From Burkholderiales bacterium (lineage in GTDB: Bacteria; Pseudomonadota; Gammaproteobacteria; Burkholderiales; SG8-41), in the NCBI GenBank assembly GCA_019634975.1, contig JAHCAI010000004.1:45979-109978 (forward strand): 64,000 nucleotides of DNA, given 5' to 3'. The notes under the pieces were generated by a model. That model worked only from the letters and a program-made list of their open reading frames with translations. It did not search any database and was not told where the DNA came from. The translations under genes and the position numbers were made by a program. Positions within the stretch are counted from its first letter, which is position 1, and the number at the start of each line of letters is the position of its first letter. Below are positions 29,367-61,488 of the stretch, in pieces.

Positions 29367-29474
29367 AGCCACAAATGGCACAGAGAAAATCAGATTAACA
29401 GGATGAACAGGATTTGCAGGACAAAACGGGTCAGAAGCCCGGGGTTTTTATCCTGTGAATCCTGTCTATCCTGT
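29367..29474. repeat. composite palindromic element E1 (CACAGAG-type half module plus ACAGGAT-word hairpin)
   Basis: Left arm 29398-29427 and right arm 29444-29474 pair at about 25/31 positions around a CGGG-N7-CCCG mini-hairpin. 29367-29391 resembles the left end of element E2. Confidence 0.7.
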
Positions 29475-29491
29475 AAGTCAGGTTTTAAAGC

Positions 29492-30646
29492 TCAGGCCTT
29501 CGGCGGACGCTGCGAGAAGCTGCGTTCGAAAATGCCCTCGGCGATGCGGTTCTTCAGGATCTCGATCGAGCCGCCAGCGATCATCCAGCCGCGGCACTTG
29601 CGGAAGCAGTATTCGACCAGCGATTCGTCGGTGTAGCCCATGCCGCCCATGATCTGCATCGCCTCGTTGCAGACGTCAAAGCCGGCCTGGTTGCAGAAGG
29701 CCTTGGCGATCGCGGTGTCTTCGGCCGAGGGAATGCCGTTGTCGGCATTGACCGCCGCCTTGTAGAGCAGCAGCTGGCCGGCGTCGAGCTTCATTTTCAT
29801 GTCGGCGAACTTCCACTGGATGCCCTGGAACTCGCAGAGCAGGCGCCCGAACTGCTTGCGCTGCATCGCCCATTCGCGGGCCACGTTGTAGGCATAGCGG
29901 CCGAAGGCCAGCGAGCGCGCGGTGTTGCCGATGCGCTCGACATTGAAGCCGGCGATCTGTTTCTTGAAGCCGCCTTCCTTGAGCATCACGTTCTCGGGGC
30001 CGACGTAGACATTGTCGAGGTAGGTCTGCACCCAGTCTTCGCCATTCATGAACTTGGCCGGCGCACCCTGCTTGAAGCCGGGGGCGTCACGCGGAATCAG
30101 CACCGAGCCGATGCCGCCCACGCCGGGGCCAAAGCGCACATAGGTCAGCATGACCTCGGCGTAGGAGGCGTGAGTCTGGAACACCTTCACGCCGTTGATG
30201 CGGTAGCCCTCGCCGTCGGGCGTGGCGGTGGTTTTCAGGTCGGTGACCGCCGAGCCGGCTTCCGGCTCGGTCATGCCGACGGTGATCACCGATTCCCCGG
30301 CGAGAATTTTCCTGAGGTAGCGTTCCTTCTGGTCCGGGGTGCCGTACTCGGCGAGCACGCGCACCGGACCGAAGTTGCCGGCCTGGATCACGTCCGCGCT
30401 GCGCGGGCAGACCGAGGAAATGGTCTCGATGGCGATGATGGCGTCCATCAGCGAGCCGCCCTGGCCGCCGTCTTCTTCCTTCATCGTGATGCCCATCAGG
30501 CCCTGCTCGGCCATCAGCTTGGCGACGTCCCAGGGATGCTCTTCCTGGTGCGCGCGCTTCAGCGCGCCGTCACGCAGGTGGCGCTCGGCAAAACCGCGCA
30601 CGGCGTCGCGGAACTGTTCCTGCTCGGGGGTGAACTTGAAATCCAT
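29492..30646 (-). CDS. acyl-CoA dehydrogenase family protein
   Basis: 384 aa. Typical ACAD N-, middle and C-domains, with the C-terminal QIMGGMGYTDESLVEY...GGSIEI. Confidence 0.9.
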   Translation of the reverse strand: MDFKFTPEQEQFRDAVRGFAERHLRDGALKRAHQEEHPWDVAKLMAEQGLMGITMKEEDGGQGGSLMDAIIAIETISSVCPRSADVIQAGNFGPVRVLAEYGTPDQKERYLRKILAGESVITVGMTEPEAGSAVTDLKTTATPDGEGYRINGVKVFQTHASYAEVMLTYVRFGPGVGGIGSVLIPRDAPGFKQGAPAKFMNGEDWVQTYLDNVYVGPENVMLKEGGFKKQIAGFNVERIGNTARSLAFGRYAYNVAREWAMQRKQFGRLLCEFQGIQWKFADMKMKLDAGQLLLYKAAVNADNGIPSAEDTAIAKAFCNQAGFDVCNEAMQIMGGMGYTDESLVEYCFRKCRGWMIAGGSIEILKNRIAEGIFERSFSQRPPKA

Positions 30647-30775
30647 GATTTGAACCTGCAGATTGATGAGGTTTCGATTTTACCGTCCGTTGTCCTCTGA
30701 GTCAGTACGCCGCAACGAACCCACATCATGGAAAACTGCAAGCGGTTTCAAACCGCCCGCAGTGCTGTGATGCGC

Positions 30776-31678
30776 TCAGGGATACATCGCCCAGCCCGTG
30801 CGATCCGTTTCCGCGCGGAAGAAGTGGCCCTGGGTGCTGGTGACGAACAGCGTGCGCATGTCCGGTCCGCCGAAGCAGCAGTTGGTCGGCCGGTTGCAGG
30901 GCACGGGATGGGTTTCGAGCACGCGGCCGGTCGGCGAGAACACGTAGATCATCGGGCCCGGCCCCGCCACTTCCCAGCCGGCAGTGGCGACGATGTTGCC
31001 GTCCGCATCCAGCGTCATGCCGTCGATGCCGCGATGCACTCCCCTGTAATCCTCGCCCCAGGTGAACAGCGTTCTGTACGGGCCGAGGCTGCCGTCATCG
31101 CGGATCGGGTAGGCGCGCAGTTCGCGCGCGATGCCGGCGGTGAAGCTGCTTTCGGCGACATACAGCGTGCCCTGGTCCTGCGACACCAGGATGCCGTTGG
31201 GCTGGGTGGTGTCGAAGACGACGCGGGTGATCGAATAGCTGCCGTCCTGCTGCGGATCGAGGCGGTAGACCGAGCGGTTGTCGAGTTCTTCCTTTTCCGT
31301 GTGATCGACGTTGCCGTCATTCCAGGGATTGGTGAACCAGATGCGGCCCTTGCGGTCGATGGCGAGGTCGTTGGGCGTGTTGAGCCGCTTGCCTTCGAAG
31401 CTGTCGGCGATCACCACGTTCTTGCCGTCGGGGTCGAAGCGCATCAAGCTGCGTCCGCCCTGGCAGCAGCCGAACAGGCGCCCCTCGGCGTCGTAGGCGA
31501 GGCCGTTGACGCGGTCGAGCCCGGTGCGCCAGGGCGTGATCGCGTTGGTCTTCGGGTCGCAGCGGAAGATGGTGTTGGCGTGGATGTGGGTGAAGTACAG
31601 GAATTCGCCGTCCCACACCGGGCCTTCGGTGATCGGCAGGCCGATCGGTTTTTTCAGGAGTTCGAATTTCCAGGACAC
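30776..31678 (-). CDS. SMP-30/gluconolactonase/LRE family protein
   Basis: 300 aa beta-propeller type. EGPVWDGE and repeated NG(L/I)xxD blades. Confidence 0.8.
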   Translation of the reverse strand: MSWKFELLKKPIGLPITEGPVWDGEFLYFTHIHANTIFRCDPKTNAITPWRTGLDRVNGLAYDAEGRLFGCCQGGRSLMRFDPDGKNVVIADSFEGKRLNTPNDLAIDRKGRIWFTNPWNDGNVDHTEKEELDNRSVYRLDPQQDGSYSITRVVFDTTQPNGILVSQDQGTLYVAESSFTAGIARELRAYPIRDDGSLGPYRTLFTWGEDYRGVHRGIDGMTLDADGNIVATAGWEVAGPGPMIYVFSPTGRVLETHPVPCNRPTNCCFGGPDMRTLFVTSTQGHFFRAETDRTGWAMYP

Positions 31679-31806
31679 GGGGACTCTCCTTGATGCCGTG
31701 GACGTTCGTGCTTCGATGCTTCGACAAGCCCGGCATCAGCACGAACGGATTATCCGGGAACCGTCCGCCCCGGTCTTGTCGAGGGGCGGACGGCGCATGC
31801 CGGTGA

Positions 31807-33210
31807 TCAGGCCTTGAGCAAAGGACGCAGCTTGGTGACGCTGCCGACTTTCTCGAGGCCCCACACCGCGTCGCAGAGCTTGCGCGCGCGCGCCTTGCCG
31901 AGGATGGGCGCCATCAGGTGATAGCACTTCTCGTCGACCTCGGCGCGGGTCATCGGGTTCTGCGCGGTGCCGCGCACGGCCTTGACGTGGTTGCGCAGCC
32001 TGCGGCCGCCCTTCAGCGTCAGTTCGACGATGCCCTGGCGCGAGGGCATCGCGCGGGTCAGCGCGTCGTCGCCGAGCAGAGTGATGCGCTTGCGCAGGTC
32101 GAGCACCTGCCTGTCGAACATGCGCTTCTCGTCGTGCGAGGACTCGAAGGTGACGATGCCGTCGATCAGCATCACCGCGCACATGTGCTGCATGCAGATG
32201 TCGGGCATGTTGCGGTTGTCGGTGGTGTTGGCGCCCTGGTGAGCGACGCGGATCACCAGCTTCTCGACGTCGGCAGCCTTGATGCCGTGCTTGCGGATCA
32301 GTTCCAGCAGGCCGTCGAGCGGCGCCTGGATCGGCGAGCCGACCGACCAGCGCTTGATGTTGGTGTTCATGATCTCGTAGGTCTTGCCGAGATCCTTGAT
32401 CAGCCGCTTCGGATCCGGCTTGCGGCCGATGCGGCGGGTCTCGTCGTAGGCGATGTAGAAATTGCGTTCGCCCGAGAACACGTCCTCCACCGCGGTAAAG
32501 CCGCGCGACACCATCGAGGCGGCCGCCGTGCCGTTGCGCGCCGGCATGCCGCCGAAGTCGAAAGCTTTCTCGATATGCTCCTCGTCGCGCATCCAGCAGG
32601 AGATGCCCGAGCACTGCTGCGCGGTGTAGGAGAGGGCGTGGCGCATGCCCTTGTAATCCAGTCCGGCCAGCAGCGAAGCTGCCGCCGCGGCGCCGAAGCT
32701 GGGGCCGAAGCTGTGCGTCGAGTGGCCGACCTGGCGGAAATCATAGGGGTGCAGCGACAGGTTGATGCGCGCGCAAAGGTCGTAGCCGAGTGCGACCGCG
32801 CGCAGCAGGCGGGTGCCGTTCGATTTCTCGCGCTCGCCCATCGCCAGTGCGGCGGGCACCACCGCGCAACCGGGATGCGACAGCGAGGGCGCGTGGGAGT
32901 CGTCGGTTTCGTCGGCGTGCGCCAGCATGCCGTTGATATGCGCGGCCTGCTCGGCATTGGTGACGATGTCCGAGCCGATCACCAGCGCCTGCGGCGCGCC
33001 GCCCAGGGTTTTCGCGTAGGCGATGGCTTTCTCGCCGGGCAGCAGGCGCGAACCCGAGACCATCGCGGCGATGGTGTCGAGCAGGTGGTGCTTGGTCTTC
33101 TCCGCGACTTCCCGGGGCAGCGGTTTTTTCGCGGCGGCGGCCATATAGGTCGCCAGGGTTTTCATCAGCGGGGACACCGCGGTCTTGGACGCTTTCGATT
33201 TGCTGCTCAT
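31807..33210 (-). CDS. MmgE/PrpD family protein
   Basis: 467 aa. HHLLDTIAAMVSG and NGMLAHADETDDSH motifs. Its start overlaps the SDR stop (ATGA). Confidence 0.8.
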   Translation of the reverse strand: MSSKSKASKTAVSPLMKTLATYMAAAAKKPLPREVAEKTKHHLLDTIAAMVSGSRLLPGEKAIAYAKTLGGAPQALVIGSDIVTNAEQAAHINGMLAHADETDDSHAPSLSHPGCAVVPAALAMGEREKSNGTRLLRAVALGYDLCARINLSLHPYDFRQVGHSTHSFGPSFGAAAAASLLAGLDYKGMRHALSYTAQQCSGISCWMRDEEHIEKAFDFGGMPARNGTAAASMVSRGFTAVEDVFSGERNFYIAYDETRRIGRKPDPKRLIKDLGKTYEIMNTNIKRWSVGSPIQAPLDGLLELIRKHGIKAADVEKLVIRVAHQGANTTDNRNMPDICMQHMCAVMLIDGIVTFESSHDEKRMFDRQVLDLRKRITLLGDDALTRAMPSRQGIVELTLKGGRRLRNHVKAVRGTAQNPMTRAEVDEKCYHLMAPILGKARARKLCDAVWGLEKVGSVTKLRPLLKA

Positions 33211-33983
33211 GGCATGATCACTCCGCCGTTGATGTGGATGGATTGTCCGGTGATGTAGCGCGCGTCGGGTCCGCAGAGCATGCGCACCATCGCCGCGATT
33301 TCCTGGGGCTGACCGCGCCGGCCGACCAGCGGCAGCGTCCTGCGGTGATCCGGGCGTTCGGGCGCGCCGGGCAGGCCGCGCACGGTATCGATGGGACCCG
33401 GCACCACGCAGTTCACCGTGATGTTGTGTTCGGCGAGATCGTGGGCGACGGCCTTGGCCATTGCCGCGAGGCCGCCCTTGGCCGTCACCACATGCGAGCG
33501 GTGCAGGGCGCCCTTGTGGCCGGTCAGGCCGCCGATGTAGACCAGCGAGCCGCCGCCGGCTTTGATCAGGTGGGGCAGCGCAGCCTGCGAAACCAGGAAG
33601 GCGCCGTCAAGCACCGTCGAAATCACGCGGTGCCATTCCTCGAGGGAAATCTTGTCGAAGGGCGTCTCCGCGCGGATCGCGGCATTGCTGACCGCCATGT
33701 CGAGCCGGCCGAACTGCTTTACGGTTTCGTCGACGAGGTGTTTCACTGCGGCAGGATCGGTGATGTCGCCCATGCACAGCGCGGCCTTGCCGCCCGCCTT
33801 CTCGATCATGGCGACGGTTTCCTCGCCGGCCTCGCGCGAGGTGTTGGCATTGATCATCACCTTGGCACCGCCTGCGGCAAGCGCGCGCGAGATGGCGCGG
33901 CCGATGTTGCGCGCGCCACCGGTGACCAGCGCGACCTTGCCGGCGAACTCGTCGCCGCGCCGCATTGCAATCTCATAGGCCAT
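33207..33983 (-). CDS. SDR family oxidoreductase (FabG-like fold, atypical active-site positions)
   Basis: TGGARNIGRAIS cofactor motif, SNAA, PGPIDT. 258 aa. The expected S...YxxxK positions read IGG...HVVTAK. Confidence 0.85.
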   Translation of the reverse strand: MAYEIAMRRGDEFAGKVALVTGGARNIGRAISRALAAGGAKVMINANTSREAGEETVAMIEKAGGKAALCMGDITDPAAVKHLVDETVKQFGRLDMAVSNAAIRAETPFDKISLEEWHRVISTVLDGAFLVSQAALPHLIKAGGGSLVYIGGLTGHKGALHRSHVVTAKGGLAAMAKAVAHDLAEHNITVNCVVPGPIDTVRGLPGAPERPDHRRTLPLVGRRGQPQEIAAMVRMLCGPDARYITGQSIHINGGVIMP

Positions 33984-33990
33984 AAATTCC

Positions 33991-34009
33991 CTTTATAATC
34001 AATAACTTA
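33991..34009 (-). repeat. AT-rich intergenic motif, copy B (short: TAAGTTATTGATTATAAAG)
   Basis: Read directly. Truncated relative to the other copies. The plus strand reads AATCAATAACTTA. Lies immediately upstream of the SDR start codon. Confidence 0.55.
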
Positions 34010-34252
34010 CAATACATATCCGGAGCGCCTCAGCGGGAGCCGCGACACTTCGGGATGGTCGGCGATGCGGGGCACTGGATGGCGCGCGGAACACTGCGCC
34101 ACTGCGCGGACGCAACGCGCAACATTGAACATCGGGGTCTCCTCCGGCAGCCGCGATGCAAGGCCCTGCGCGGCGACGGGATGCAATTCAAGCAGGCAAA
34201 TTGATTCTAGCAGCCCGCAGGCGCGCCCGTCGGCTGATGTCCGTACTGTAAA

Positions 34253-34774: not shown

Positions 34775-34798
34775 ACGTCAAAGGCGAAAACCTTTTTA

Positions 34799-34921
34799 GC
34801 CACAGAGGACACAGAGAAAACCGGGTTTGTCTTGTTCCCGAATTATCGGCACGCGGCAACTCAGTGCAGATATCGTCAAATAACCCAAAGAACTCTCTGT
34901 GAACTCTGTGTCCTCTGTGGC
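34799..34921. repeat. palindromic element E2 (CACAGAG-word arms) between purE and purK
   Basis: Perfect 18-bp inverted repeat: GCCACAGAGGACACAGAG (34799-34816) and CTCTGTGTCCTCTGTGGC (34904-34921). They are separated by an 87-nt lower-GC spacer. Confidence 0.8.
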
Positions 34922-34939
34922 TGATTTGGTTTTATACCC

Positions 34940-36076
34940 ATGATTTTTCCCGACGCCATGCTCGGCATGCTCGGCGGCGGTCAGCTGGGGCGCATGTTCA
35001 CGCTCGCCGCGCACAGCATGGGTTACCGCGTGACGGTGCTTGATCCGGATCCGCTGAGCCCGGCCGGCGCAATCGCCGACGTGCACCTGAAGGCGGCCTA
35101 CCAGGATGTCGAGGCACTGCAGCAGCTCGCCGACAGCTGCGCCGCGGTGACCACCGAATTCGAGAACGTGCCTGCCGAGAGTCTGCGCTGGCTGGCAAAT
35201 CACTGCACGGTGCGCCCCGGCGGCGACGCGGTGGCCGTGGCCCAGGACCGCATCCGCGAGAAAGCCTTCTTTCGCGCTGCCGGCCTCGGCGTTGCGCCGT
35301 ACGCGGTGATCGAATCCGATGACGACCTTGTCCATGCCCCGAAGACCCTTTTTCCGGGGATCCTGAAGCGCGCGCGTTTCGGCTACGACGGCAAGGGCCA
35401 GGCCCGGGTCGCGGACGTGGAGGAGGCGCGCAAGGCTTTCAAGGCCATGGGCGCGGAATCCTGCGTGCTGGAGCAGCGCATCGAATTGCAGTGCGAGATT
35501 TCCGCGGTGGTCGCGCGCGGCGCCGACGGCCTCGGCCGCAGTTTTCCGGTGGCGGAGAACCGCCACCGCGACGGCATCCTCGATGTCAGCATCGTGCCGG
35601 CGCGCGTGCCGGGCGATCTGGCGAAGCTTGCCGAGGAGTGGGCGCTGCGCGTCGCTGCCAGGCTGGAATACTGCGGCGTGCTGGCGGTGGAGTTTTTCGT
35701 GACCCGGGACGGACAGCTGCTGGCCAACGAAATGGCGCCGCGCCCGCACAACAGCGGCCATTACACGATCGACGCCTGCGCCACCTCGCAGTTCGAGCAG
35801 CAGGTGCGCACGCTCTGCGGCCTGCCGCTGGGCGACACCCGGCTGCTCTCTCCGGTGGTGATGGTCAACCTGCTCGGCGAGGCCTGGCAGCATGGCCAGC
35901 CGCAGTGGGAACGCGTTTTTCTTGCGCCGGAAGCCAAGCTGCATCTCTACGGCAAGCACGAGGCCCGTGCCGGCCGCAAGATGGGGCATTTCACGATGCT
36001 CGGCGCCGGCGCGGATGCCGCTTTGCAGAAGGCGCTGATCGCGCGCAGCGCGCTGTATCCCGACTGGAACGACTGA
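34940..36076 (+). CDS. purK: 5-(carboxyamino)imidazole ribonucleotide synthase
   Basis: ATP-grasp protein with [11 protein letters not shown] near the N-terminus. 378 aa. The start could be one of the in-frame ATGs at 34958/34967. Confidence 0.9.
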
Positions 36077-36099
36077 CCCGAGAGCCGAAGCGAATCCCG

Positions 36100-36987
36100 A
36101 TGAGCGACGCCCCGCTGTACCAGACCAACCTCAAGAGCCTGCCTTTCCTGCACCGTGGCAAGGTGCGCGACATCTACGCCGTCGGCGACGACAAGCTGCT
36201 GGTGGTGCAGAGCGACCGTCTCTCCGCCTTCGACGTGATCCTCGACGATCCGATTCCCGGCAAGGGCCGCGTGCTGACCGAGGTGTCGAACTTCTGGTTC
36301 GACAAACTGAAACACATCGTTCCCAACCACCTGACCGGCATCGACCCGGCGACCGTGGTGGCGCCGGAAGAACGCGCGCAAATCGCCGGCCGCGCGATGG
36401 TGGTGCACAAGTACAAACCGCTGATGGTCGAGGCCGTGGTGCGCGGTTACCTCATCGGTTCGGGCTGGAGCGATTACCAGAAAACCGGCGCGATCTGCGG
36501 CATCCAGTTGCCCGCGGGCCTCAAGCAGGCGGAAAAACTGGCCGAGCCGATTTTCACGCCGGCCTCGAAGGCGCCCGCCGGCCATCACGATGAAAACATC
36601 ACCTACGACGACGTGGTGGCCACCATAGGCGCCGACCACACGGCGAAGGTGAAAGAGGTATCAATCAAACTCTACAAGGCCGCCGCCGAGTTTGCGGCGA
36701 CGCGCGGCATCATCATTGCCGACACCAAGTTCGAGTTCGGCACCGATGCCGCCGGCAACATGTTCCTGATCGACGAGGCGCTGACGCCGGATTCCTCGCG
36801 CTTCTGGCCGGCCGCCGAGTACCGCACCGGGATCAGCCCGCCCAGTTTCGACAAGCAGTTCGTGCGCGACTGGCTGGAAACCCAGCCCTGGAACAAGAAG
36901 GCGCCGGCGCCGCGGCTGCCCGCCGACGTGCTGGCGAAGACCGCGGCGAAATACCGCGAAGCGCAGCGCATGCTGACCGGCCGCTGA
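36100..36987 (+). CDS. purC: phosphoribosylaminoimidazolesuccinocarboxamide (SAICAR) synthase
   Basis: GKVRDIY and SDRLSAFD motifs. 295 aa from ATG 36100. The longer track ORF overlaps purK out of frame. Confidence 0.9.
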
Positions 36988-36988
36988 G

Positions 36989-38164
36989 ATGTCGACCACG
37001 CCCGGCAAGCTGTTTCCCGAAGGCGGCAAGGCCGATGCCGCTGCTGCGGTGACCACCGGCATCCTGCCCGACCGCGACATCGCGCGCCTGATCGACGGCG
37101 GACGCATCAGCGCCGAAGGCGGCGTCGATCCCTCGCAGATCCAGCCGGCGAGCCTCGACCTGCGCCTGGGTGCAACAGCCTGGCGCGTGCGCGCGAGTTT
37201 CCTGCCGGGCAAGACCTCGACGGTGCAGGCCAAGATCGACCGCCTGCAGATGCACAAGATTGATCTCTCCAAACCCACCGTGCTGGAGAAGGGCTGCGTC
37301 TACATCGCCGAGCTGATGGAAGAACTGAAGCTGCCCGCCGACATCGCCGGCAGCGCCAACCCCAAAAGCTCCACCGGCCGCCTCGACATTTTCACGCGGC
37401 TGATCACCGATGCCGGCGCCGAGTTCGAAGGTGTGGCCGCCGGTTACAAGGGCAAGCTCTATGTCGAGATCATGCCGCATACCTTCAGCGTGCTGGCGCA
37501 GCAGGGCACGCGGCTGAACCAGATCCGCTTCATCCGCGGCAACCCGCCGCCCTCGGATACCAAGCTCACCGAGCTCGACCAGACGCTGAAGCTGGTCTAC
37601 AACGACAGCGACGGCCCGCTGCCGGCGATGATCAAGAACGGCCTCTGGGTGTCAGTCGACCTCGAAGGTGACTCGAGTCACGGCATCATCGGTTACCGCG
37701 CCAAACACCACGCGCCTTTGATCGATTTGTCGAAGCTCAACCACTACGATCCGCTCGATTTCTGGGAACCGATCCGGCGCAACGCCGACCGCTCGCTGGT
37801 GCTGAATCCCGACGACTTCTACATCCTGGTGTCGCGCGAACGCGTGCGCATCCCCAACAACTACGCCGCGTCGATGGTGCCCTACGATCCCTCGGTCGGC
37901 GAATTCCGCATCCACTACGCCGGCTTCTTCGATCCCGGTTTCGGTTACGGTGCCAACAACCTGAAGGGCGCGCGCGCGGTGCTCGAAGTGCGCTCGCATG
38001 ACGTGCCCTTCATGATCGAACACGGCCAGGACGTCGGCCGCCTGATCTACGAACGCCTGCTCGGCGAACCGCAAAGCATCTACGGCGTGACCATCGGGTC
38101 GAACTATCAGTCGCAGGGGCTGAAGCTCTCCAAACAGTTCAAGCCGCTGGCGATGCCGGTCTAG
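36989..38164 (+). CDS. 2'-deoxycytidine 5'-triphosphate deaminase (long DCD-family form)
   Basis: 391 aa. N-terminal GILPDRDIARLIDGGRI and a duplicated dUTPase-like fold, as I recall for the long DCD family. Starts 1 nt after the purC stop. Confidence 0.65.
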   Translation: MSTTPGKLFPEGGKADAAAAVTTGILPDRDIARLIDGGRISAEGGVDPSQIQPASLDLRLGATAWRVRASFLPGKTSTVQAKIDRLQMHKIDLSKPTVLEKGCVYIAELMEELKLPADIAGSANPKSSTGRLDIFTRLITDAGAEFEGVAAGYKGKLYVEIMPHTFSVLAQQGTRLNQIRFIRGNPPPSDTKLTELDQTLKLVYNDSDGPLPAMIKNGLWVSVDLEGDSSHGIIGYRAKHHAPLIDLSKLNHYDPLDFWEPIRRNADRSLVLNPDDFYILVSRERVRIPNNYAASMVPYDPSVGEFRIHYAGFFDPGFGYGANNLKGARAVLEVRSHDVPFMIEHGQDVGRLIYERLLGEPQSIYGVTIGSNYQSQGLKLSKQFKPLAMPV

Positions 38165-42359: not shown

Positions 42360-43319
42360 ATGCGCCGCAGCGATTTCGACATCACCGACAGGATCCGCAC
42401 CACCGACACCATCGAAGTGTCGGATGCCGTGCTCGGCCTGTTCCGCGCCCTCTATCCGCAGGGCAACCCGCGGCCGATGGAGAAGGCCTTCGAGGAACTG
42501 TCGCGGATGTACCACGGCAAGCATCCGGACTATCATCCCTGTGACACCGAGTACCACGACATCCAGCACGTGCTGGACGTGACGCTGGCGATGGCGCGGC
42601 TGCTCGACGGCTACCAGCGCGATCCGCGCGAGCAGGCGCCGCTGTCGCCCGAGCTGTTCAATGTCGGCATCGTCACCGCGCTGTTTCACGACGTCGGCTA
42701 CCTGCGCCGGCGCAACGACCGCAAGCACCGCTACGGCGCCGAGTACACGCTGACCCACGTATCGCGCGGCGCCAGATTCCTGCTCGGTTACCTGCCGAAA
42801 ATTGGTTTGAAAAAATACGCCCGTGACGCTTCGGTGATCATTCATTTCACCGGCTATGAGCGCAACCCGGACAGCATCCGCATGGGCGATCCGGTGATGC
42901 GCCGCATCGGCGAGATTCTCGGCACCGCGGACATCATCGCGCAGATGTCGGACCGCTGCTACCTCGAGAAATGCCACGACCGGCTGTACCCCGAGTTCCT
43001 GCTCGGCGGTATCGCCGAGCGCCGGCAGCCCGACGGCAGTGTCGTCGTGGTCTACAAATCGGGCAAGGACCTGCTCAGCAAGACGCCGGCGTTTTATGTC
43101 AATGCGATGAAGCGGCTGGAACTCAAGCTGCGTCGCGCCTACCAGTATGCCGAGGTCCATTTCGGGGGCCGCAACCTCTACATCAAGGAGATGGAGAAGA
43201 ACGCGGCCCATGCCGAGGAGGCGACCGGCGCGAGCGGGCGCAGCCGCCTGCGACGCGCGGCCCCCAGGACGCTGCCCGCGGGCGTGCGCTCCGCACCGGA
43301 GTCGCTGGTGATCCGCTGA
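42360..43319 (+). CDS. HD-domain-like metal-dependent phosphohydrolase (uncharacterised)
   Basis: YHDIQHVLDV ... TALFHDVGY His/His-Asp pattern. 319 aa. No closer family recognised. Confidence 0.5.
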   Translation: MRRSDFDITDRIRTTDTIEVSDAVLGLFRALYPQGNPRPMEKAFEELSRMYHGKHPDYHPCDTEYHDIQHVLDVTLAMARLLDGYQRDPREQAPLSPELFNVGIVTALFHDVGYLRRRNDRKHRYGAEYTLTHVSRGARFLLGYLPKIGLKKYARDASVIIHFTGYERNPDSIRMGDPVMRRIGEILGTADIIAQMSDRCYLEKCHDRLYPEFLLGGIAERRQPDGSVVVVYKSGKDLLSKTPAFYVNAMKRLELKLRRAYQYAEVHFGGRNLYIKEMEKNAAHAEEATGASGRSRLRRAAPRTLPAGVRSAPESLVIR

Positions 43320-43331: not shown

Positions 43332-43880
43332 ATGCGCTTCATGGTCCGCACCGGCATCCTGATTGCACAGCTTGCGGCTTTTTTCGTGCTGATGGCGCTG
43401 ATCTCGCTGGGCACGACCTACCTCACCGCAGAGCGATATGCGGAGGGCTCGACGCCGGTACGCCTGTTTCCGGTCATTTCGCTGCCGCCCGGGGCGGCGA
43501 ATCCACCGCGCTACGAGCTGTTGCGCTGGCCGGATGTCACGCGCAAGGATCCGCCGCCGCCGCCGCGCGAGCTGCGCCTGCCCGAGCCGGCGGGCGAATT
43601 CGATGTGCCGGCCCGCGGCGGCTTTGCGCCGATGGTGCGCTTTGCCGCGCATGACGCGGGCGACGGGCGCCAGCGCGTTGAACTCAGGGTTACCGAGGAT
43701 GACTACGTGATTTACGCCGCCTATGTCACGGACGGCGGCACGGTGGCGCCGGAGTATTTCCGTGTCTGGGGCCCGTCCTCGGCGCTGCTCGCGGTTTTTC
43801 CGGCCTTCGTGCTGGCGCTGGTGCTGGGGCGCCTGCTGCGCCGGCGCTTCATGCCCCCGGCCAAGGCGGACGCCGCCTGA
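43332..43880 (+). CDS. hypothetical membrane-anchored protein
   Basis: 182 aa. N-terminal and C-terminal hydrophobic helices. Coding-like codon usage. No domain recognised. Confidence 0.4.
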   Translation: MRFMVRTGILIAQLAAFFVLMALISLGTTYLTAERYAEGSTPVRLFPVISLPPGAANPPRYELLRWPDVTRKDPPPPPRELRLPEPAGEFDVPARGGFAPMVRFAAHDAGDGRQRVELRVTEDDYVIYAAYVTDGGTVAPEYFRVWGPSSALLAVFPAFVLALVLGRLLRRRFMPPAKADAA

Positions 43881-43938: not shown

Positions 43939-44409
43939 TCAGCCGTCGCGGCTTTGCAGCTCGTGGAGCTTCATGCCGTGCCAGTTGGGCAGCGCGGCGA
44001 GAAAATCCGGGTGCGCCCTCGCGATCCACACATACTGCTCGTCCTCGCGCGCGGTACGGAATCCCGCGGCCGCCTGCCGCAGCCACCAGGCCACGCCGAC
44101 GTCGGTGGCACCGATCAGCAGCATCACCACTGCGGGAACGGCGCCGAGCAGGAAGAAAACAGCTGGTGCCGCGATGATCAGGGCAAGGCCTGCGATGGCG
44201 ATGATCTTGGCCGCGCGCCCGCGCCGCGAGCGACAGGACGGGCATAGCGGCGGCCGCACCCTGGGACGGGTGCCGGGGGCGGCGGGCGCCGCATCCGGCA
44301 CCGCGCAGGCGCTGCCGCAGGACAGGCACAGCGAGGGAAACTGGTGACGATGACGCTCGACGACGACCATGTCGTCGCTGCGGTGAACCCCGGAGGTACC
44401 CTTCAGCAT
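43939..44409 (-). CDS. hypothetical zinc-ribbon membrane protein
   Basis: 156 aa. CxxC...CxxC (CLSCGSAC...CPSC) followed by two TM helices. Lies 16 nt downstream of gcdH. Confidence 0.4.
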   Translation of the reverse strand: MLKGTSGVHRSDDMVVVERHRHQFPSLCLSCGSACAVPDAAPAAPGTRPRVRPPLCPSCRSRRGRAAKIIAIAGLALIIAAPAVFFLLGAVPAVVMLLIGATDVGVAWWLRQAAAGFRTAREDEQYVWIARAHPDFLAALPNWHGMKLHELQSRDG

Positions 44410-47810: not shown

Positions 47811-48776
47811 TTACTGCTGCGGGATTTTCGCGTCGCGCACGACTTTCGCCCACTTGTCCGTTTCGGCGCGGAGATGCTTGACGAAGTCAGCCGAGGAACT
47901 CGGTGTGGCATCCATGCCCTGGCGCTCGTAGCGCTCCTTCATTTCCGGCGTGCTCATCACGGCGACGATGGTCTTGTTCAGTTTTTCGACGATCGGCTTG
48001 GCCACGGCGGCCTGCGTCAGTATGCCGTACCAGGTGGCGTATTCGAATCCCGGCACACCGGACTCCTGCACCGTGGGCACCTCCGGCAGTGCGTTCGAAC
48101 GGGACCTGGTCGTCACCGCTATGCCGCGCAAGCGCCCGCTTTTGACATGGGGCAGCGCCGAAGCGAAGGTCGACATGAACGCGTTGGTTTCGTTGCCGAG
48201 CAGGGCCGTGACGGCCGGACCGGTGCCTTTGTACGGCACGTGTATCAGCTGGATGTCCTGCGACATCATCAGCATTTCCATCGCCAGGTGGGTGCCCGAG
48301 CCGAGTCCAGCGGAACCGTAGGTCAGCTTGCCGGGCTGTTTCTTCGCCAGCGCAATGAATTCCTGGAAATTCCTGGCCGGCAGCGAAGGATGGGTGACGA
48401 TGATGTTGGGTTGCTCGGTCACCAGCGAAATCGGCGCGAAATCGCGGATCGCGTTGAAAGGCAGTTTCTTGTAGAGCGCGGCGTTGAAGGCGAGGCTGAT
48501 GTTGCCGAGGAACAGCGTATAGCCATCGGGTGAGGCCTTGCTGGCGATATCCGCGCCCAGGGTGCTGCCGGCGCCGGGGCGGTTGTCGACGACGATGGTG
48601 GTGCCCAGCGCGGCGCCGAAGGCATCGGTCATGGTGCGGGCACTGATGTCGCTGCCGCCTCCCGGAGCGAAGGGCACGATCATGCGGATCGGGCGTTCCG
48701 GATAGGACGACTGGGCGTGGGCTGCGGGGGCGGCTGCGAACAGCGCTGCGACGACGATTGCTGAGTGTTTGATCAT
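47811..48776 (-). CDS. Bug family (TctC-like) periplasmic substrate-binding protein
   Basis: Signal peptide. IRMIVPFAPGGGSDISAR and VVDNRPGAGS motifs. 321 aa. Confidence 0.85.
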   Translation of the reverse strand: MIKHSAIVVAALFAAAPAAHAQSSYPERPIRMIVPFAPGGGSDISARTMTDAFGAALGTTIVVDNRPGAGSTLGADIASKASPDGYTLFLGNISLAFNAALYKKLPFNAIRDFAPISLVTEQPNIIVTHPSLPARNFQEFIALAKKQPGKLTYGSAGLGSGTHLAMEMLMMSQDIQLIHVPYKGTGPAVTALLGNETNAFMSTFASALPHVKSGRLRGIAVTTRSRSNALPEVPTVQESGVPGFEYATWYGILTQAAVAKPIVEKLNKTIVAVMSTPEMKERYERQGMDATPSSSADFVKHLRAETDKWAKVVRDAKIPQQ

Positions 48777-54108: not shown

Positions 54109-54112
54109 GCGG

Positions 54113-56137
<2,025 letters not shown>

Positions 56138-56164
56138 GTTTCCAGGGATGCGCCATTAAAGGGC

Positions 56165-56226: not shown

Positions 56227-56269
56227 ATACTGTTCAGGTCGGGTGTTACAGAATTCAGAGCCCGATGGC

Positions 56270-57376: not shown

Positions 57377-57390
57377 GGTCGGATTCCGAG

Positions 57391-57415
57391 TAAAAAGCGG
57401 CGCCGCAGCGCCGCT
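57391..57415 (-). terminator. rho-independent terminator-like hairpin 15 nt upstream of the enolase-family start codon
   Basis: The minus strand reads AGCGGCGC-tgcg-GCGCCGCT then TTTTA: an 8-bp GC stem, a 4-nt loop and a T-run. Confidence 0.7.
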
Positions 57416-57417
57416 AT

Positions 57418-57444
57418 AAAAACATCAATAAAATCAAATACTTA
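57418..57444 (-). repeat. AT-rich intergenic motif, copy F (TAAGTATTTGATTTTATTGATGTTTTT)
   Basis: Read directly. Closest to the consensus. Lies between the Bug gene stop and a GC hairpin terminator. Confidence 0.75.
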
Positions 57445-57449
57445 TAATA

Positions 57450-58406
57450 TCACAGCTTGCCGATACGCTGCACCGCCTTCGCCATCCGCGCATAGTCGGC
57501 ATCGAAGAAGGTCTTGAATTCCGGCAGGTCGCGGTAATCCGGCACCACCTGCACCTTCTTCAGCGCCTCGATGAATTGCGGATCGTTGGCGGCCTTGCGC
57601 ACCAGCTCGCGCAGCTGGGTCAGCGTGGCATCGGGAATGCCGGCGGCGGTGAACAGGCCGACCCAGAGATAGGCTTCGATGTCGATGCCCTGCTCCTTGA
57701 AAGTCGGCACGTTCGGCAGCGACGGGTGACGCTTCGCGCCCCAGCTCGCCAGTGCGCGCATCTTGCCCGACTGGACATGCGGGTACACCGCGGCTACGCC
57801 GCCGTCGGTGGCGTCGACGTGGCCGCCCAGCAGCTGCGTGATCGCGGGACCGCCGCCGGTGGTCGGCACATGGCGCATTTTGAGCCCGGCGGCATCGAGA
57901 AACATTTCCATCGGCACGTGGGTGATCCCATAGGGGCCGGAGGACGAGAAGGTGCTGGTGCCCTTGGCCGCCTTGGCGAGCGCGATGAACTCCTTCACGG
58001 TCTTCGCCGGCACCGTCGGGTGCACGGTCAGGATCAGCGGGTCGGCGCTCATCAGCGCGACCGGCTGGATTTGCGCCAGCGTGTACGGCGACTTGATGCC
58101 GTAGAGCTTGTCCTTCTCGATGACGAGATAGAGGTTCGGCGTGGTCACCAGCAGCGTATGGCCGTCAGGCGGCTGGTTGGCGACAAAGGCCGTGCCCACC
58201 GCGGCAGTGCCGCCGGGGCGGTTGACCACCGGCGCCGGCTGCTTGGTCAGGCGCTCGATGATCGCTGACAGCGGCTGGGCGTGGATCTGGTTCATGCCGC
58301 CGGGCGGGTTGGGCACGACCAGGGTCATGGCCTTGCTCGGGAAGGTCTGCGCCTGGGCGGCCAGCGATACGGACGCGCAGGCCGCGGCAATCAGCAGTCG
58401 TTTCAT
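57450..58406 (-). CDS. Bug family (TctC-like) periplasmic substrate-binding protein
   Basis: Signal peptide LLIAAACASVSLAAQA. MTLVVPNPPGG and VVNRPGGTAA motifs. 318 aa. Confidence 0.8.
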   Translation of the reverse strand: MKRLLIAAACASVSLAAQAQTFPSKAMTLVVPNPPGGMNQIHAQPLSAIIERLTKQPAPVVNRPGGTAAVGTAFVANQPPDGHTLLVTTPNLYLVIEKDKLYGIKSPYTLAQIQPVALMSADPLILTVHPTVPAKTVKEFIALAKAAKGTSTFSSSGPYGITHVPMEMFLDAAGLKMRHVPTTGGGPAITQLLGGHVDATDGGVAAVYPHVQSGKMRALASWGAKRHPSLPNVPTFKEQGIDIEAYLWVGLFTAAGIPDATLTQLRELVRKAANDPQFIEALKKVQVVPDYRDLPEFKTFFDADYARMAKAVQRIGKL

Positions 58407-58640
58407 TCGGTTTCCTCCGGTGGATTGCGCTGGCCGCGGTGCAGCCTGCGCCTTATTGGAAAATGCTGGTAAAAACGTTAATCCCTAATATCCGCGAAGT
58501 CAATTGGCGGATCTGCCGGCCGCAGTTGGCAACGCAGCGCAACTTGGTTAGCCTAAGCGTCCGCGACCGCTTGCCGCAGTCGTTTCGCGCAGCCGCATTC
58601 CGCAGCATCATTCCGCAACTATCCGATTCCACGACAAGAG

Positions 58641-59558
58641 ATGACCAAGAAAATCCAGTCCGTCCTGATCTACGGTTACGGCGTCATGGGTGCAGGCGTT
58701 GCCCGCACCTTCGCCAAGGCCGGCTTCGACACCATCATCCGCAGCAGCCGTGCCGCGGAGCTGAAGGATCTGCCGCCGGGCGCCCGCGCGGTGACCGCGC
58801 TGCCGGACATGCCGCCCGATCTGGTGCTCGAGCTGGTGCCGGAGGAGGTGAAGACCAAGCAGGCGGTGTATCTCGAAGTGGAAGCGAAGTATCCGGGCGC
58901 GGACGTGATCATTGCCACCGGCACCTCGGGGCTCGACCTGGTCGAGCTGGCGAAACCGCTGAAACATCCGGAACGCTTCGTCGGCCTGCACTACTTCATG
59001 CCCGCCGACCAGGCGCTGGTGGTGGAAGTGATGGCGGGACCGCAAACCCCGCGCGAGCTGGTCGACCTCTGCGCCGACGTGCTGCGCCGCACCGGCAAGG
59101 AGCCGGTGGTGCTCTACAAGCCCATCGTCGGTTTTCTGGTGAACCGGCTGCAGCACGCGATCCTGCACGAGGCCTATTACCTGATCGAGAACGGCGTGGC
59201 CAGCGCCGCCGACATCGACCATGCCGCGCGGCGCATGCTGGCGCCGCGGATGTGCGTCAACGGCCTGATCGCGCAGAAGGACTTGAGCGGCCTGGTGATC
59301 CACGCCGGCGCGCAGGCCTCGATTGTTCCCGAGCTGTTCCACAACGGCATCCCCAATCCCATGCTGCAGGCGATGGTGAAGAACGGCGAGACCGGCACCG
59401 CCGCCGGCAAGGGTTTCTATGACTGGGACGGCTGCGATACCGCGGCCGTGCGCAAGCAGGCTTCGGTACAGCTCGCGAAACTGACCGAGTTTCTTGACTC
59501 GGAAGCGATGCAGCCTGCGCCCAAAACCCAGCCCAAGCCGCGCGATCCACGACGTTGA
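58641..59558 (+). CDS. 3-hydroxyacyl-CoA dehydrogenase family protein
   Basis: Rossmann N-terminus VLIYGYGVMGAGVARTFAKAG and the GFLVNRLQHAI motif of the HBD/HADH C-terminal domain. Confidence 0.8.
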   Translation: MTKKIQSVLIYGYGVMGAGVARTFAKAGFDTIIRSSRAAELKDLPPGARAVTALPDMPPDLVLELVPEEVKTKQAVYLEVEAKYPGADVIIATGTSGLDLVELAKPLKHPERFVGLHYFMPADQALVVEVMAGPQTPRELVDLCADVLRRTGKEPVVLYKPIVGFLVNRLQHAILHEAYYLIENGVASAADIDHAARRMLAPRMCVNGLIAQKDLSGLVIHAGAQASIVPELFHNGIPNPMLQAMVKNGETGTAAGKGFYDWDGCDTAAVRKQASVQLAKLTEFLDSEAMQPAPKTQPKPRDPRR

Positions 59559-60280
59559 TTGCCGACCCGCGTCGCGCCCTTGTGCTCGGCGCGCGTGAAG
59601 CGCTGGGCGTCCCTGCGGCCGTGCTCGGCGCGGGTTTCCTCGGCTATGGCTCGCTGGCCGCGGATGCGGGATATCCCGTTTACCTGACACTGCTCGCAAC
59701 CTTCGCCATCTGGGCACTGCCCGGCCAGCTGGTGCTGATGGAAATGCAGGCGGCCGGCGCTGCGCTGGCGGCAACGCTGCTCGCGGTGTGGCTCAGTGCC
59801 GCGCGCTTTTTCCCGATGACCCTGACGCTGATGCCGCTGCTGCGCCGCGGCGGCCGCGCGCGTTCATGGTGGCGGTTCCTGCTGGTGGCCCAGCTGGTGT
59901 CGATGACCACCTGGGCGGTCGCTATCCGCCGCTTCGAGGACAGCGACCTGCAGGACCCCGGGTCGCGCTGGCAGTACTTCATCGGCTTTTCCGCGGTGTG
60001 CATCGGCTCGGCCGCAGTCTGCGCGGTGATCGGCCAGCTGCTGATCGGCGCGTTGCCGCCGCTGGCGAAATACGGGCTGGCCCTGCTGACACCGCTTTAT
60101 TTCTTCGTGACCCTCGTGGGCGAGGCGCGTTCGAAATCCGCCATCGCCGCGCTGATTTGCGGCGCCGCGGTGGCACTGGCGCTGCACGAGGCGGCACCCG
60201 GCTGGAGCCTGCTCGGCGCCGGCCTGATCGGCGGCAGCGCCGCCTTCCTGCTGCAGAGAAGCCATGCCCGGCACGGCTGA
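59555..60280 (+). CDS. AzlC family branched-chain amino acid exporter subunit
   Basis: TTG start overlapping the upstream stop (TTGA). Multi-TM. N-terminal REALGVPAAVLGAGFLGYGSLA...PGQLVLMEM pattern. Confidence 0.75.
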   Translation: MIADPRRALVLGAREALGVPAAVLGAGFLGYGSLAADAGYPVYLTLLATFAIWALPGQLVLMEMQAAGAALAATLLAVWLSAARFFPMTLTLMPLLRRGGRARSWWRFLLVAQLVSMTTWAVAIRRFEDSDLQDPGSRWQYFIGFSAVCIGSAAVCAVIGQLLIGALPPLAKYGLALLTPLYFFVTLVGEARSKSAIAALICGAAVALALHEAAPGWSLLGAGLIGGSAAFLLQRSHARHG

Positions 60281-60605
60281 GATCGGCGTCGCGATACTGG
60301 CTTGCGGTTTCGTCACCTGGCTGTGGCGCGGACTCGGCGTGCTGCTGTCGGGACGCCTGGATCCGAAAAGCGCGATGTTCGAATGGGTGTCCTGCGTGGC
60401 CTACGCGCTGGTCGCAGGGCTGATCGCGCGCATCATCGTTGCACCCTCCGGCCTGCTGGCGCAGACCGCGCTGGCCGATCGCCTGCTGGCCTGCCTGGTC
60501 GCACTGCTCGCCTACCATCTCGCCCGGCGCAACATGTTCGCCGGGATGGTCTGCGGCATCGCGGTGTTCGTCGGCGCCGGATACGTCCGCGGGCTCATCG
60601 CTTAA
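60264..60605 (+). CDS. AzlD family protein
   Basis: 113 aa. Four hydrophobic helices. Overlaps the azlC-like 3' end by 17 nt. Confidence 0.65.
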   Translation: MPGTAEIGVAILACGFVTWLWRGLGVLLSGRLDPKSAMFEWVSCVAYALVAGLIARIIVAPSGLLAQTALADRLLACLVALLAYHLARRNMFAGMVCGIAVFVGAGYVRGLIA

Positions 60606-60614
60606 AATCACGGC

Positions 60615-61400
60615 ATGAGCGGCGAAATCCTGGTGGCGCGCGAGGGCGCGGTCGCGACGGTCACCCTGTCCAATCCCCCGAAGCTGAATGCACTGACGGT
60701 TGCGATGTGGCGCGATCTGGCGCGGGCATTCAATGCGCTGTCGGCCGATGACGGCCTGCGCTGCGTCGTGCTGCGCGGCGCCGGCACGGAGGCTTTCGCG
60801 GCCGGCGCCGACATCGCCGAATTCGCGACAGAACGCAACACTGTCGAACAGGGCCGGATTTATCACCGCGAGCTGGTTTACGGTGCACTGCGCGCGGTCG
60901 GCGAATGCCGGCATCCGACGGTGGCGATGATCCACGGCGCCTGCGCCGGCGGCGGGCTGGAGCTGGCCTGCCAGTGCGACCTGCGGCTGGCCGGCCGCAG
61001 CGCGCGCTTCGGCGTGCCGATCAACCGGCTGGGCTTCGCCATCGCCTGGGACGAACTGGCTGCGCTGCTGCCGCTGATCGGGCGCGCGGCGGCGCTGGAG
61101 ATCCTGGTCGAAGGCCGCATGTGGGGCGCGCAGGAAGCGCATGACAAGGGCCTGCTGACGCGGCTGGTCGATGACAGCGCGCTGGCGGCCGAAACCGCCG
61201 CCACCGTGCAGCGCATCTGCGACGGGGCGCCGCTGGTCGCGCGCTGGCACAAGCAGTTCATACGTCGCCTCACACCGCAGCCGGCACCGCTGACGGACGC
61301 CGAGATCGACGCCAATTTCGACTATTTCAACACCGAGGATTACCGCATCGGCTACGATGCCTTCATCAACAAGCAGAAGCCGGAGTTCAAGGGACGCTGA
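60615..61400 (+). CDS. enoyl-CoA hydratase/isomerase family protein
   Basis: LSNPPKLNAL, FAAGADIAEF and GACAGGGLELACQCD motifs. 261 aa. Confidence 0.85.
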   Translation: MSGEILVAREGAVATVTLSNPPKLNALTVAMWRDLARAFNALSADDGLRCVVLRGAGTEAFAAGADIAEFATERNTVEQGRIYHRELVYGALRAVGECRHPTVAMIHGACAGGGLELACQCDLRLAGRSARFGVPINRLGFAIAWDELAALLPLIGRAAALEILVEGRMWGAQEAHDKGLLTRLVDDSALAAETAATVQRICDGAPLVARWHKQFIRRLTPQPAPLTDAEIDANFDYFNTEDYRIGYDAFINKQKPEFKGR

Positions 61401-61410
61401 TTTTTTTTAA

Positions 61411-61488
61411 CCGCCGATGAACGCCGATCCGTTTTTTCAAAAAAGGGGGGTTCGATTCTCATCTGCGTTTATCGGCGTTCATCGGCGG
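61411..61488. repeat. palindromic element E3 (CGCCGAT-word arms)
   Basis: Perfect 18-bp inverted repeat: CCGCCGATGAACGCCGAT (61411-61428) and ATCGGCGTTCATCGGCGG (61471-61488). The spacer contains T6-C-A6-G6 runs. T8 and T7 runs flank the element. Confidence 0.8.

Follow-up and report, generated by a model that had tools for sequence, protein, structure and literature searches.

Within a 64,000-nt stretch of contig JAHCAI010000004.1 from a Burkholderiales bacterium (hereafter the window), three small intergenic elements, which we call E1, E2, and E3, each carry an array of 7-nt words that is mirrored by an inverted array of such words at the other end. Elements of this kind are gained and lost between close relatives, one and the same gene junction is repeatedly hit by different word families, and elements nest in or abut one another. 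The reading that we favor, with a probability of about 0.45, is that E1, E2, and E3 represent three subfamilies of one superfamily of small (~70–150 bp), non-coding intergenic repeats and that these repeats are non-autonomous, foldback-type mobile elements whose words would be read as DNA by a trans-acting protein. The probability is set no higher because neither a parent element nor an enzyme was found, because no clean target duplication was seen, and because single genomes hold many word families.

An earlier note on the window had described 7-nt word arrays with a period of 9–10 bp and mirrored ends. All of its coordinates were confirmed, with the third word on the left side of E1 proving degenerate, and a repeat finder returned the same arrays together with inverted repeats that enclose them (table 1). 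We also scanned the window irrespective of word identity for any 7-mer that occurs at least twice at a period of 8–11 bp and, within 160 nt, is matched by two or more inverted copies spaced in the same way. This word-agnostic scan identified exactly three loci, E1, E2, and E3, and the design was absent from all 200 third-order Markov simulations that were run for the window. With 16/17-mers from the arms and up to three mismatches allowed, the window contains 4, 4, and 7 matches for E1, E2, and E3, respectively, compared with 0.07, 0.27, and 0.96 expected. Relaxing the detector to one mismatch per word, a setting that is too noisy (~6 chance matches per 64 kb), gave no further copies in the window.

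Table 1. Positions in the window of the three elements, their word arrays, and other features
Feature	Position	Strand	Description
E1, complete foldback element	29386–29486		ACAGGAT family; period 9; between genes for an acyl-CoA dehydrogenase and an ADP-forming CoA ligase (both minus strand)
E1 left array	29398–29422		ACAGGAT exact at 29398 and 29407; third word at 29416 degenerate (GCAGGAC, two mismatches)
E1 right array	29450–29474		ATCCTGT exact at 29450, 29459, and 29468
E2, complete foldback element	34787–34933		CACAGAG family; period 9; between purE and purK
E2 left array	34801–34816		CACAGAG exact at 34801 and 34810
E2 right array	34895–34919		CTCTGTG exact at 34895, 34904, and 34913
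E3, complete foldback element	61402–61503		CGCCGAT/CGCAGAT family; period 10; between genes for an enoyl-CoA hydratase and a family III CoA-transferase (co-directional)
E3 left array	61412–61428		CGCCGAT at 61412 and 61422
E3 right array	61461–61487		ATCTGCG at 61461; ATCGGCG at 61471 and 61481
E3 complementary arms	61411–61428 and 61471–61488		100% complementary
Solo left arm	29367–29391	+	degenerate, CACAGAG (E2) type, AGCCACAAATGGCACAGAGAAAATC; abuts E1
Hairpin in E1 loop	29427–29441	+	small GC hairpin and T5, CGGGTCAGAAGCCCG GGGTTTTT
Three adjacent open reading frames	42360–43319, 43332–43880, 43939–44409		319, 182, and 156 aa; no Pfam match at E ≤ 1e-5
Six TctC/Bug-family periplasmic receptor genes	1307–2302, 9090–10217, 20405–21367, 24842–25816, 47811–48776, 57450–58406		

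The three elements had been called unrelated in the earlier note; instead, they have in common an A/T-rich, T-rich outer flank whose last letters ahead of the first word are TAAC or TAGC (AAAATCAGATTAAC in E1, AAAACCTTTTTAGC in E2, and TTTTTTTTAAC in E3), and their words belong to a connected network. The flanks form outer palindromes in E1 (AAAATCAGATTAAC/GTAAGTCAGGTTTT) and E2 (AAAACCTTTTTAGC/GCTGATTTGGTTTT) and T-run flanks in E3 (TTTTTTTTAAC ... GCAAATGTTTTTTT). The general plan starts with an A/T-rich palindromic outer flank, typically TTTAAC or TTTAGC on the left and GTTAAA or GCTAAA on the right, continues inward with two to four copies of a 7-nt, usually purine-rich word with 1–4 free nucleotides between copies, and reaches an unconstrained, lower-GC loop of 5–125 nt (median 27) that is followed by the inverted array. 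E1, E2, and E3 contain 3+3, 2+3, and 2+3 words with distances of 19–87 nt between the arms; the low-GC spacer of E2 measures 76–87 nt (87 nt between the best arms), and the inverted-repeat finder delimits arms of 41 nt with 78% complementarity in E1. Among the 98 elements that we analysed for constraint (78 of the CACAGAG type and 20 of the ACAGGAT type), the commonest form has 3+3 words, and 3+2 and 2+3 forms are also common.

Comparison of many copies shows that both the period and the structure of the words are retained. Intervals within the CACAGAG family have a period of 9 (183 intervals), 8 (63), 10 (16), or 11 (11), and 59 of 60 intervals within the ACAGGAT family have a period of 9. 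The spacing of about one helical turn put forward in the earlier note is therefore approximate only, with periods of 8, 9, 10, or 11 depending on the family and mostly of 9; the accepted helical repeat of B-DNA is ~10.5 bp, from which a period of 9 falls ~1.5 bp short. Most words, including those of E2 and E3, fit a one-step mutational network that can be written C-R-C-N-R-A-K and has CACAGAG, CGCAGAG, CACAGAT, CGCAGAT, CGCCGAT, CGCAAAG, CGCGAAG, and CACGAAG as members, and ACAGGAT and GTGAWTG are word types apart from it. The proposal of several word types within one design stands, and these types often occur together on one contig.

Comparison of copies supports the view that the words are individually conserved and probably individually recognized units, and not one half of a base-paired stem. 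Deviations from the consensus word are one-sided in 77 cases and compensated in 2 in the CACAGAG family, and one-sided in 10 and compensated in 1 in the ACAGGAT family. Inter-word spacers are complementary at chance level in the CACAGAG family (42% vs. 34% for shuffled partners, whose maximum is 47%), and the corresponding value for the ACAGGAT family is 28% against a null of 33%. In the element of contig L320 (L numbers denote the sequences compared with the window), both arms contain words of one family, yet these are not pairwise complementary. The words are kept while the loops diverge fully, both between the window and L189, a metagenome-assembled genome (MAG) of a sister lineage, and between the window and its 99% relative L269. 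Such constraint at the level of the word without base-pair covariation predicts a DNA-binding factor.

These data bear directly on the alternative that the elements act as RNA, that is, as transcribed stems that terminate, attenuate, stabilize, or direct the processing of mRNA in the manner of Escherichia coli REP (repetitive extragenic palindromic) sequences, with the words being incidental. Predicted single-strand folds of E1–E3 are very stable and far better than those of shuffled sequences on either strand (z of −5.0 to −8.7, with −8.7 and −6.8 on the two strands of E1), and all three copies in the window are intercistronic. The 4 nt beyond the outermost words are complementary beyond chance in the CACAGAG family (64% vs. 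34% null), the value for the ACAGGAT family (51% vs. 43%, null maximum 52.5%) not being clearly above chance, and E2 differs from its L189 orthologue by one compensatory spacer change (GA/TC to GT/AC). Against this stand the rarity of compensation in the words (2 of 79 deviations), the chance-level inter-word spacers, and the poorly pairing arms of L320. A terminator scan made no call at E2 and E3 and found at E1 nothing but a stem of 5 bp, which lies antisense to the flanking genes; the hairpin in the E1 loop is terminator-like on the plus strand only. We therefore rejected intrinsic terminators as a candidate, in agreement with the earlier note, to which the elements had resembled multi-site protein-binding ends more than simple terminators. 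Searches of Rfam gave no gathering-level match in the window, and a permissive threshold added only spurious microRNA matches. Since an RNA role would also leave unexplained why the word array is always 5' and why words recur across phyla, and since the share of elements in divergent spacers is close to that of the background (9% vs. 12%), we consider it quite unlikely.

The orientation of the elements is fixed, with the purine-rich word array on the 5' side and the complement array on the 3' side. When ACAGGAT arrays were collected regardless of arrangement, the word array preceded its complement in 27 close pairs and followed it in none. For CACAGAG, the convergent pattern was present in 75 stretches and the divergent pattern in 12, several of which lie on contigs that also contain convergent CACAGAG elements.

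To place the elements relative to genes, 90 of them were sorted by spacer type with a simple, home-made gene caller of limited accuracy: 78% lie in co-directional, 13% in convergent, and 9% in divergent spacers, compared with 77%, 11%, and 12% of background spacers, and six lie inside predicted genes. A bias toward 3' ends like that of REP sequences was therefore rejected. All three window elements do lie between co-directional genes, as had been noted before; because the proportions equal background, this setting is simply the commonest kind of spacer.

Presence and absence of the elements were found to vary between relatives at the E3 and E2 sites, a polymorphism that the earlier note had proposed to look for. 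Relatives of the E3 junction were gathered by a metagenome scan with the gene adjoining E3, which gave a graded series. E3 is present in the window, in L357–L359, and in L269, where the E3-type element has 3+3 words and an unrelated loop. Ten further relatives, L270–L279, in which the flanking gene is 95–98% identical, have short, empty spacers at this site, and across ~124 kb from these relatives no element was detected; one of them, L279, already has TTTTTAACC at the site of E3. Across lineages, the hydratase–CoA-transferase junction contains at least five different word types: in addition to the E3 words, CACAGAG was identified in L288, CGCGAAG/CGCAAAG in L287, L309, and L335, CACAAAG/CGCCAAG/CACGAAG in L320, GTGAATR in L291, and GTGATTG in L314 and L322. 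In other lineages the junction is tight (TGAAAAATG).

The E2 site gives a similar picture. The nearest species-level genomes are two uncultured Burkholderiales MAGs, L189 and L190, whose PurK proteins have 84% and 78% identity, respectively, to that of the window. In the window and in L189, purE and purK are separated by a spacer of 165–188 nt that contains an E2 element; the outer flanks of the two copies agree, their word numbers differ, and their loops have diverged completely. In L190 the junction is empty and the purE stop codon overlaps the purK start codon (ATGA). Logan contigs L001–L003 contain a spacer identical to that of E1. Between the acyl-CoA dehydrogenase and ligase genes, where the window has E1, L189 has a complete CACAGAG element (L189 3470–3575); the solo CACAGAG-type arm that abuts E1 is thus a remnant, and E1 replaced the center and right arm of an older element.

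An alternative is that the elements are cis-regulatory or architectural sites that the host keeps for its own benefit, at which proteins such as IHF/HU or global regulators bind cooperatively and bend or insulate the DNA between genes. Consistent with this are the conservation of individual words without covariation, the mirror-symmetric, multi-site layout in a fixed orientation, and the persistence of E2 at the orthologous purE–purK junction of L189 at 84% PurK identity while the loop diverged, and the Geobacter metallireducens genome paper puts forward a precedent hypothesis (Aklujkar et al. 2009; PMC2700814). Yet the same sites are without elements in close relatives, where nothing points to compensation, one word family can take the place of another at a given site, and many families coexist in a genome. 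There is furthermore no positional link to promoters, the spacer types occur in background proportions, and the same words in Bacteroidota, Gemmatimonadota, and Burkholderiales would require a shared regulator. A role as host sites is, in our view, doubtful.

The elements are not confined to the window and are multi-copy. In ~85 kb of sequence from the host or from a 99.7% identical strain, we identified two complete E2-type elements and one solo arm, two E3-type elements, and one E1-type element, and the density in the host lineage is roughly one element per 15 kb. An E3-type element lies ~100 nt past the right end of the window before a gene for an EVE-domain protein (L358 3791–3855), the 99.7% strain has an E2-type element ~5 kb past the left end (L363 3406–3506), and L189 has three CACAGAG elements in 21 kb. 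The spacer between zapA and the EVE-domain gene, which we take from its position after zapA alone to contain the 6S RNA gene (ssrS), provides a further case of exchange: between the presumed 6S gene and the EVE-domain gene, the host contig has an E3-type element and its 99% relative L269 a CACAGAG-type element. In L358 this spacer measures 434 nt, and the presumed 6S gene with its putative terminator (aaaatgcggccaggccgcattttttttg) lies at L358 3500–3760, ~170–430 nt beyond the right end of the window, with the E3-type element following it.

The design, often with identical words, recurs in many metagenome contigs. In a collection of viral contigs, the E1 arm matched 98 stretches, the full E2 design 75, and the E3 design 12. 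Many of these matches share the architecture, typically with 3+3 words around a short, A/T-rich loop and with several copies per contig. Contigs found by means of one word contain others in the same design, among them CACAGAT, CGCAGAT, CACGGAT, CGCAAAG, GAAGCCA, and AAACCGGAT, and L034 has at least eight word types in 8 kb. In L118 and L127, elements are nested as [CGCAAAG x3][CACAGAG x3] loop [CTCTGTG x3][CTTTGCG x3], and these composites follow one another head to tail every 149–153 bp as a higher-order tandem array (L127 3596–3990 and 6359–6752; L118 586–800 and 5155–5386). The CACAGAG type also occurs in Bacteroides ovatus, where the site is the junction between gmd and the GDP-fucose synthase gene (fcl), in B. 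finegoldii, and at 13 and 12 places in the megaplasmids of Gemmatirosa kalamazoonensis, nested inside CCGCAGAGGG arrays. Overall, the same words and near-identical elements, flanks included, are present in genomes with 43–72% GC from three phyla, that is, Bacteroidota, Gemmatimonadota, and Burkholderiales. In two Gemmatirosa families with two copies each, the non-palindromic loop and the linkers are common to the copies, so that whole composite units have been copied. Querying a plasmid collection with E1- and E3-type sequences returned nothing useful, possibly because of low-complexity masking.

Two further arrangements were seen among the collected contigs. In L110 (2584–2920), L119 (2330–2666), and L141 (6771–7107), convergent CACAGAG arrays enclose a conserved 76-aa open reading frame (ORF; GGGLMDTGEGRFEEFEYKPSEEY...), which could be a small gene caught between the arrays or a cargo-like arrangement. 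The viral contigs L180 (4373–4506) and L185 (5940–6099) contain palindromic TGCGCCGATC arrays of period 10 with a second, related array nearby, and these resemble clusters of phage operators or iterons more closely than they do the intergenic elements.

The number of words per arm varies. The near-identical contigs L034 and L074 differ by one whole unit, arms are often unequal in word number, one arm in L291 has seven units, and the right arm of the element at L189 13226–13380, where synteny with the window breaks, is a perfect tandem of four CTCTGTGCT units. One-arm expansion is also illustrated by Gemmatirosa plasmid 1 (L356 11448–11560), in which nine copies of GCTGCGTG face three of CACGCAGC at a period of 8. 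These unit-number differences and perfect tandems, the unequal arms, and the one-step mutational network of words would all follow if the arrays propagated neutrally without a dedicated protein, by slippage together with template switching or conversion within elements, and if words in different taxa had converged by mutation or composition. Such a process would not account for complete elements in formerly tight junctions, for near-identical elements and flanks in three phyla at 43–72% GC, or for the copying of composite units with their loops, the strict orientation, and the conservation of words amid drifting spacers. We regard it as very unlikely.

The earlier note knew of no named system of this design. 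In this regard the picture has changed in part: the design is not wholly new, similar paired arrays having been catalogued once, in Geobacter, without a mechanism, and both a mechanism and a name are still lacking. Under the label "predicted global regulator binding sites," classes 1–3, the G. metallireducens genome paper describes sites that come in pairs, with the two members on opposite strands and a variable distance apart, each with 3–5 tandem repeats of 7–9 nt (Aklujkar et al. 2009; PMC2700814). The repeats are GTTGCTYN x4 in class 1, TCTCCGTS[Y] x3 in class 2, and MTYCTGA x5 in class 3, with 24, 21, and 8 pairs, respectively, one of them between proB and proA, and binding by combinations of IHF and HU was proposed there without a test (PMC2700814). 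These classes have in common with E1–E3 the paired, opposite-strand tandem arrays, the multi-copy and intergenic occurrence, and the presence of several classes per genome. When the published consensus alone is compared, the complement of class 2, CACGGAGA, is a variant of the E2 word that is found in many E2-type copies, and CACGGAG variants within E2-type arrays match TCTCCGTS[Y]. Class 1 differs in having a period of 8 and in being a target of the IS110-family insertion sequences (IS) ISGme8/9, which lie at a fixed distance from class 1 sites, and the same paper does not treat mobility, spread across phyla, constraint at the word level, or family swaps (PMC2700814). For G. bemidjiensis, multicopy sequences were found in 12% of intergenic regions (PMC2996986). 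Our literature search found no name, no functional or mobility test, and no exact arm sequence for the repeats described here.

Among well-studied repeats, REP sequences, bacterial interspersed mosaic elements, and REPINs (REP doublets forming hairpins) are the most similar in habit, as they are short, abundant, intergenic palindromes that often form inverted pairs around a spacer and are tolerated in operon junctions; REPINs are mobilized in trans by a single-copy domesticated transposase, the REP-associated tyrosine transposase (RAYT). Each REP, however, is an imperfect palindrome, small and GC-rich, that carries a GTAG or CGTC tag, and not a direct array of words. Inspection of the sequences revealed neither GTAG/CTAC nor CGTC/GACG at the ends of E1–E3, the sole CGTC being in the loop of E2. 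E1–E3 are therefore not REPs; their arms also lack base-pair covariation. The link to RAYT or IS200/IS605-like nucleases raised in the earlier note finds no footing in either the ends or the gene content of the window, which encodes no RAYT.

Miniature inverted-repeat transposable elements (MITEs) such as Correia/NEMIS, Nezha, and Chunjie are likewise non-autonomous, ~100–200 bp in length, intergenic, polymorphic, and dispersed, with terminal inverted repeats. E1–E3 have such terminal repeats, a small size, and no coding capacity, and presence/absence polymorphism is seen in the comparison of E3 with L270–L279 and of E2 with L190. The terminal repeats of MITEs, however, match those of a parent IS and are bordered by target duplications of fixed length; neither a parent IS nor a consistent duplication was found in the loci fetched here, and the termini of E1–E3 are tandem arrays of variable number. 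In eukaryotes, Foldback (FB)-type transposons have long inverted termini made of tandem short sub-repeats in variable copy number, and most copies are noncoding. FB transposons differ from the present elements in being eukaryotic, kilobase-scale, and linked to known transposase superfamilies, and a literature search for a bacterial counterpart found none.

Short-period arrays, both direct and inverted, are also read by oligomerizing DNA-binding proteins, as in the metboxes of MetJ (8 bp), the heptads of omega (7 bp), and the ParR–parC iterons (10–11 bp). Those arrays are located at specific promoters or plasmid loci beside the gene of the binding protein and are not dispersed, polymorphic, or multi-family. 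Integron attC sites consist of R''/R' core sites (RYYYAAC ... GTTRRRY) with paired inner sites and are found near mobile cassettes and an IntI integrase. We rejected them as a candidate because only some copies end in TTTAAC...GTTAAA, others ending in TAGC/GCTA or CAC/GTG, and because their interior consists of direct arrays of words; the flanking genes, moreover, belong to housekeeping operons (purEK, gmd-fcl), and the window encodes no integrase. Plasmid or phage iterons, which are typically direct repeats of 17–22 bp next to the gene of the binding protein, were rejected since the words, 7 nt long, are scattered among operon junctions of the chromosome and have no rep or par gene in their vicinity. 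A CsrA sponge function for E1, whose words contain CAGGA motifs, was dropped by inference, as GGA is missing from other families and the motifs would be part of a stem. An interplay of Shine-Dalgarno and anti-Shine-Dalgarno sequences, raised by GAGG or AAGG in many 5' arms, was discarded because E3-type words lack these motifs, and intrastrand triplex motifs and the Bacteroides FopS small RNAs were judged unrelated. The TAACTGA heptamers of Beggiatoaceae, Cyanobacteria, and Bacteroidetes are also intergenic, occur in distant phyla, and spread by a mechanism that is not known (PMC4679880). They differ in being contiguous (period 7), direct only (169 direct sets vs. 1 indirect), and placed just upstream of start codons, and we judged them unrelated as well.

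Taken as non-autonomous mobile repeats, the elements could work as follows. The words would be recognition units, several per arm and in mirror symmetry, that are read on DNA by a trans-acting protein encoded elsewhere. The most likely reader would be a transposase or recombinase by which the element is copied or moved, with a nucleoid protein as the alternative, and word families may represent diverged specificities of a family of reader proteins or lineages of elements that have spread horizontally. Array size would change by replication slippage, the strong hairpin potential would be a by-product of the mirror design, and elements would survive at positions that tolerate them, after one gene's stop codon and ahead of the ribosome-binding site of the following gene.

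Several points weigh against this reading. Protein binding is inferred from sequence, and the 56 ORFs of the window include no transposase, recombinase, RAYT, HUH nuclease, or IHF/HU, so that the statement in the earlier note that no candidate cognate protein is encoded there holds. In ~4.8 Mb of fetched loci, no convergent arrays 150–6,000 nt apart enclose a transposase-sized ORF, and only small or unrelated ORFs were found. Target duplications were not seen in the two Gemmatirosa families, and the short sequences that recur at both ends of filled sites, namely, ATGA at E2, TGATTTTT at E3 in L269, and GTTAA in L288, are of unequal lengths and not flush with the arms. The E1 family has one site in the host sequence examined. 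Single contigs such as L034 hold at least eight word families, which would mean many proteins if each family required its own, and swaps between near-identical strains could reflect homologous recombination of old alleles and not new insertion.

A bolder version of the mobile reading is that the elements represent a new class of bacterial mobile DNA, that is, foldback miniature elements with arrays of 7-nt "address words" at their ends, which would be moved or copied by an enzyme family that reads tandem words in mirror symmetry, whose specificities diversify (C-R-C-N-R-A-K, ACAGGAT, GTGAWTG, and others), and which prefers existing elements or A/T-rich operon junctions. We hold this version to be unlikely as it stands; if true, it would explain both the spread across phyla (Bacteroidota, Gemmatimonadota, Burkholderiales, Geobacter) and the rapid exchange of families at single sites.

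The remaining content of the window is summarized here for completeness. Its last 11.2 kb are 100% identical to ENA contig ERZ2606016 NODE_137, and both of its ends are 99.7% identical to JGI contig Ga0484001_0000138 (L357, L363). Gene content of the JGI strain differs near window position 9–10 kb, where a pair of TctC genes and a gene for a 2-hydroxyacid dehydrogenase stand in L363 in place of one TctC gene, and L363 is ~0.8 kb longer overall between the two anchor genes. The window encodes three ordinary regulators (RpiR, HxlR, and GntR) and, in addition, the three adjacent ORFs without a Pfam match (table 1). Its six TctC/Bug-family receptor genes sit among genes for CoA-ester metabolism, including two for MmgE/PrpD and others for acyl-CoA dehydrogenases, a CoA ligase, a CoA-transferase, and hydratases; expansion of these receptors is typical of Burkholderiales. 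The simple gene caller placed no confident gene at 13474–14703, where ORFs at 13855–14742 (plus strand) and 13483–15030 (minus strand) compete, or at 36076–36989, which is probably the gene after purK and has a 295-aa ORF as its counterpart in L189.

Operon structure, recombination, and strain variation are all shaped by small dispersed repeats, and how these spread is mostly not known beyond REP/RAYT and a few MITE–IS pairs. The elements described here combine one fixed architecture with an interchangeable word of 7 nt and are also present in numerous uncultured lineages. They disrupt translationally coupled junctions such as purE–purK. In practical terms, they yield spurious short ORF calls and can serve as hypervariable markers for strain typing. 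The superfamily is also tractable, since it has cultivable carriers, including human-gut Bacteroides and Gemmatirosa, and turns over between strains whose flanking genes are 95–99% identical; with such carriers, the missing cognate factor is within experimental reach.

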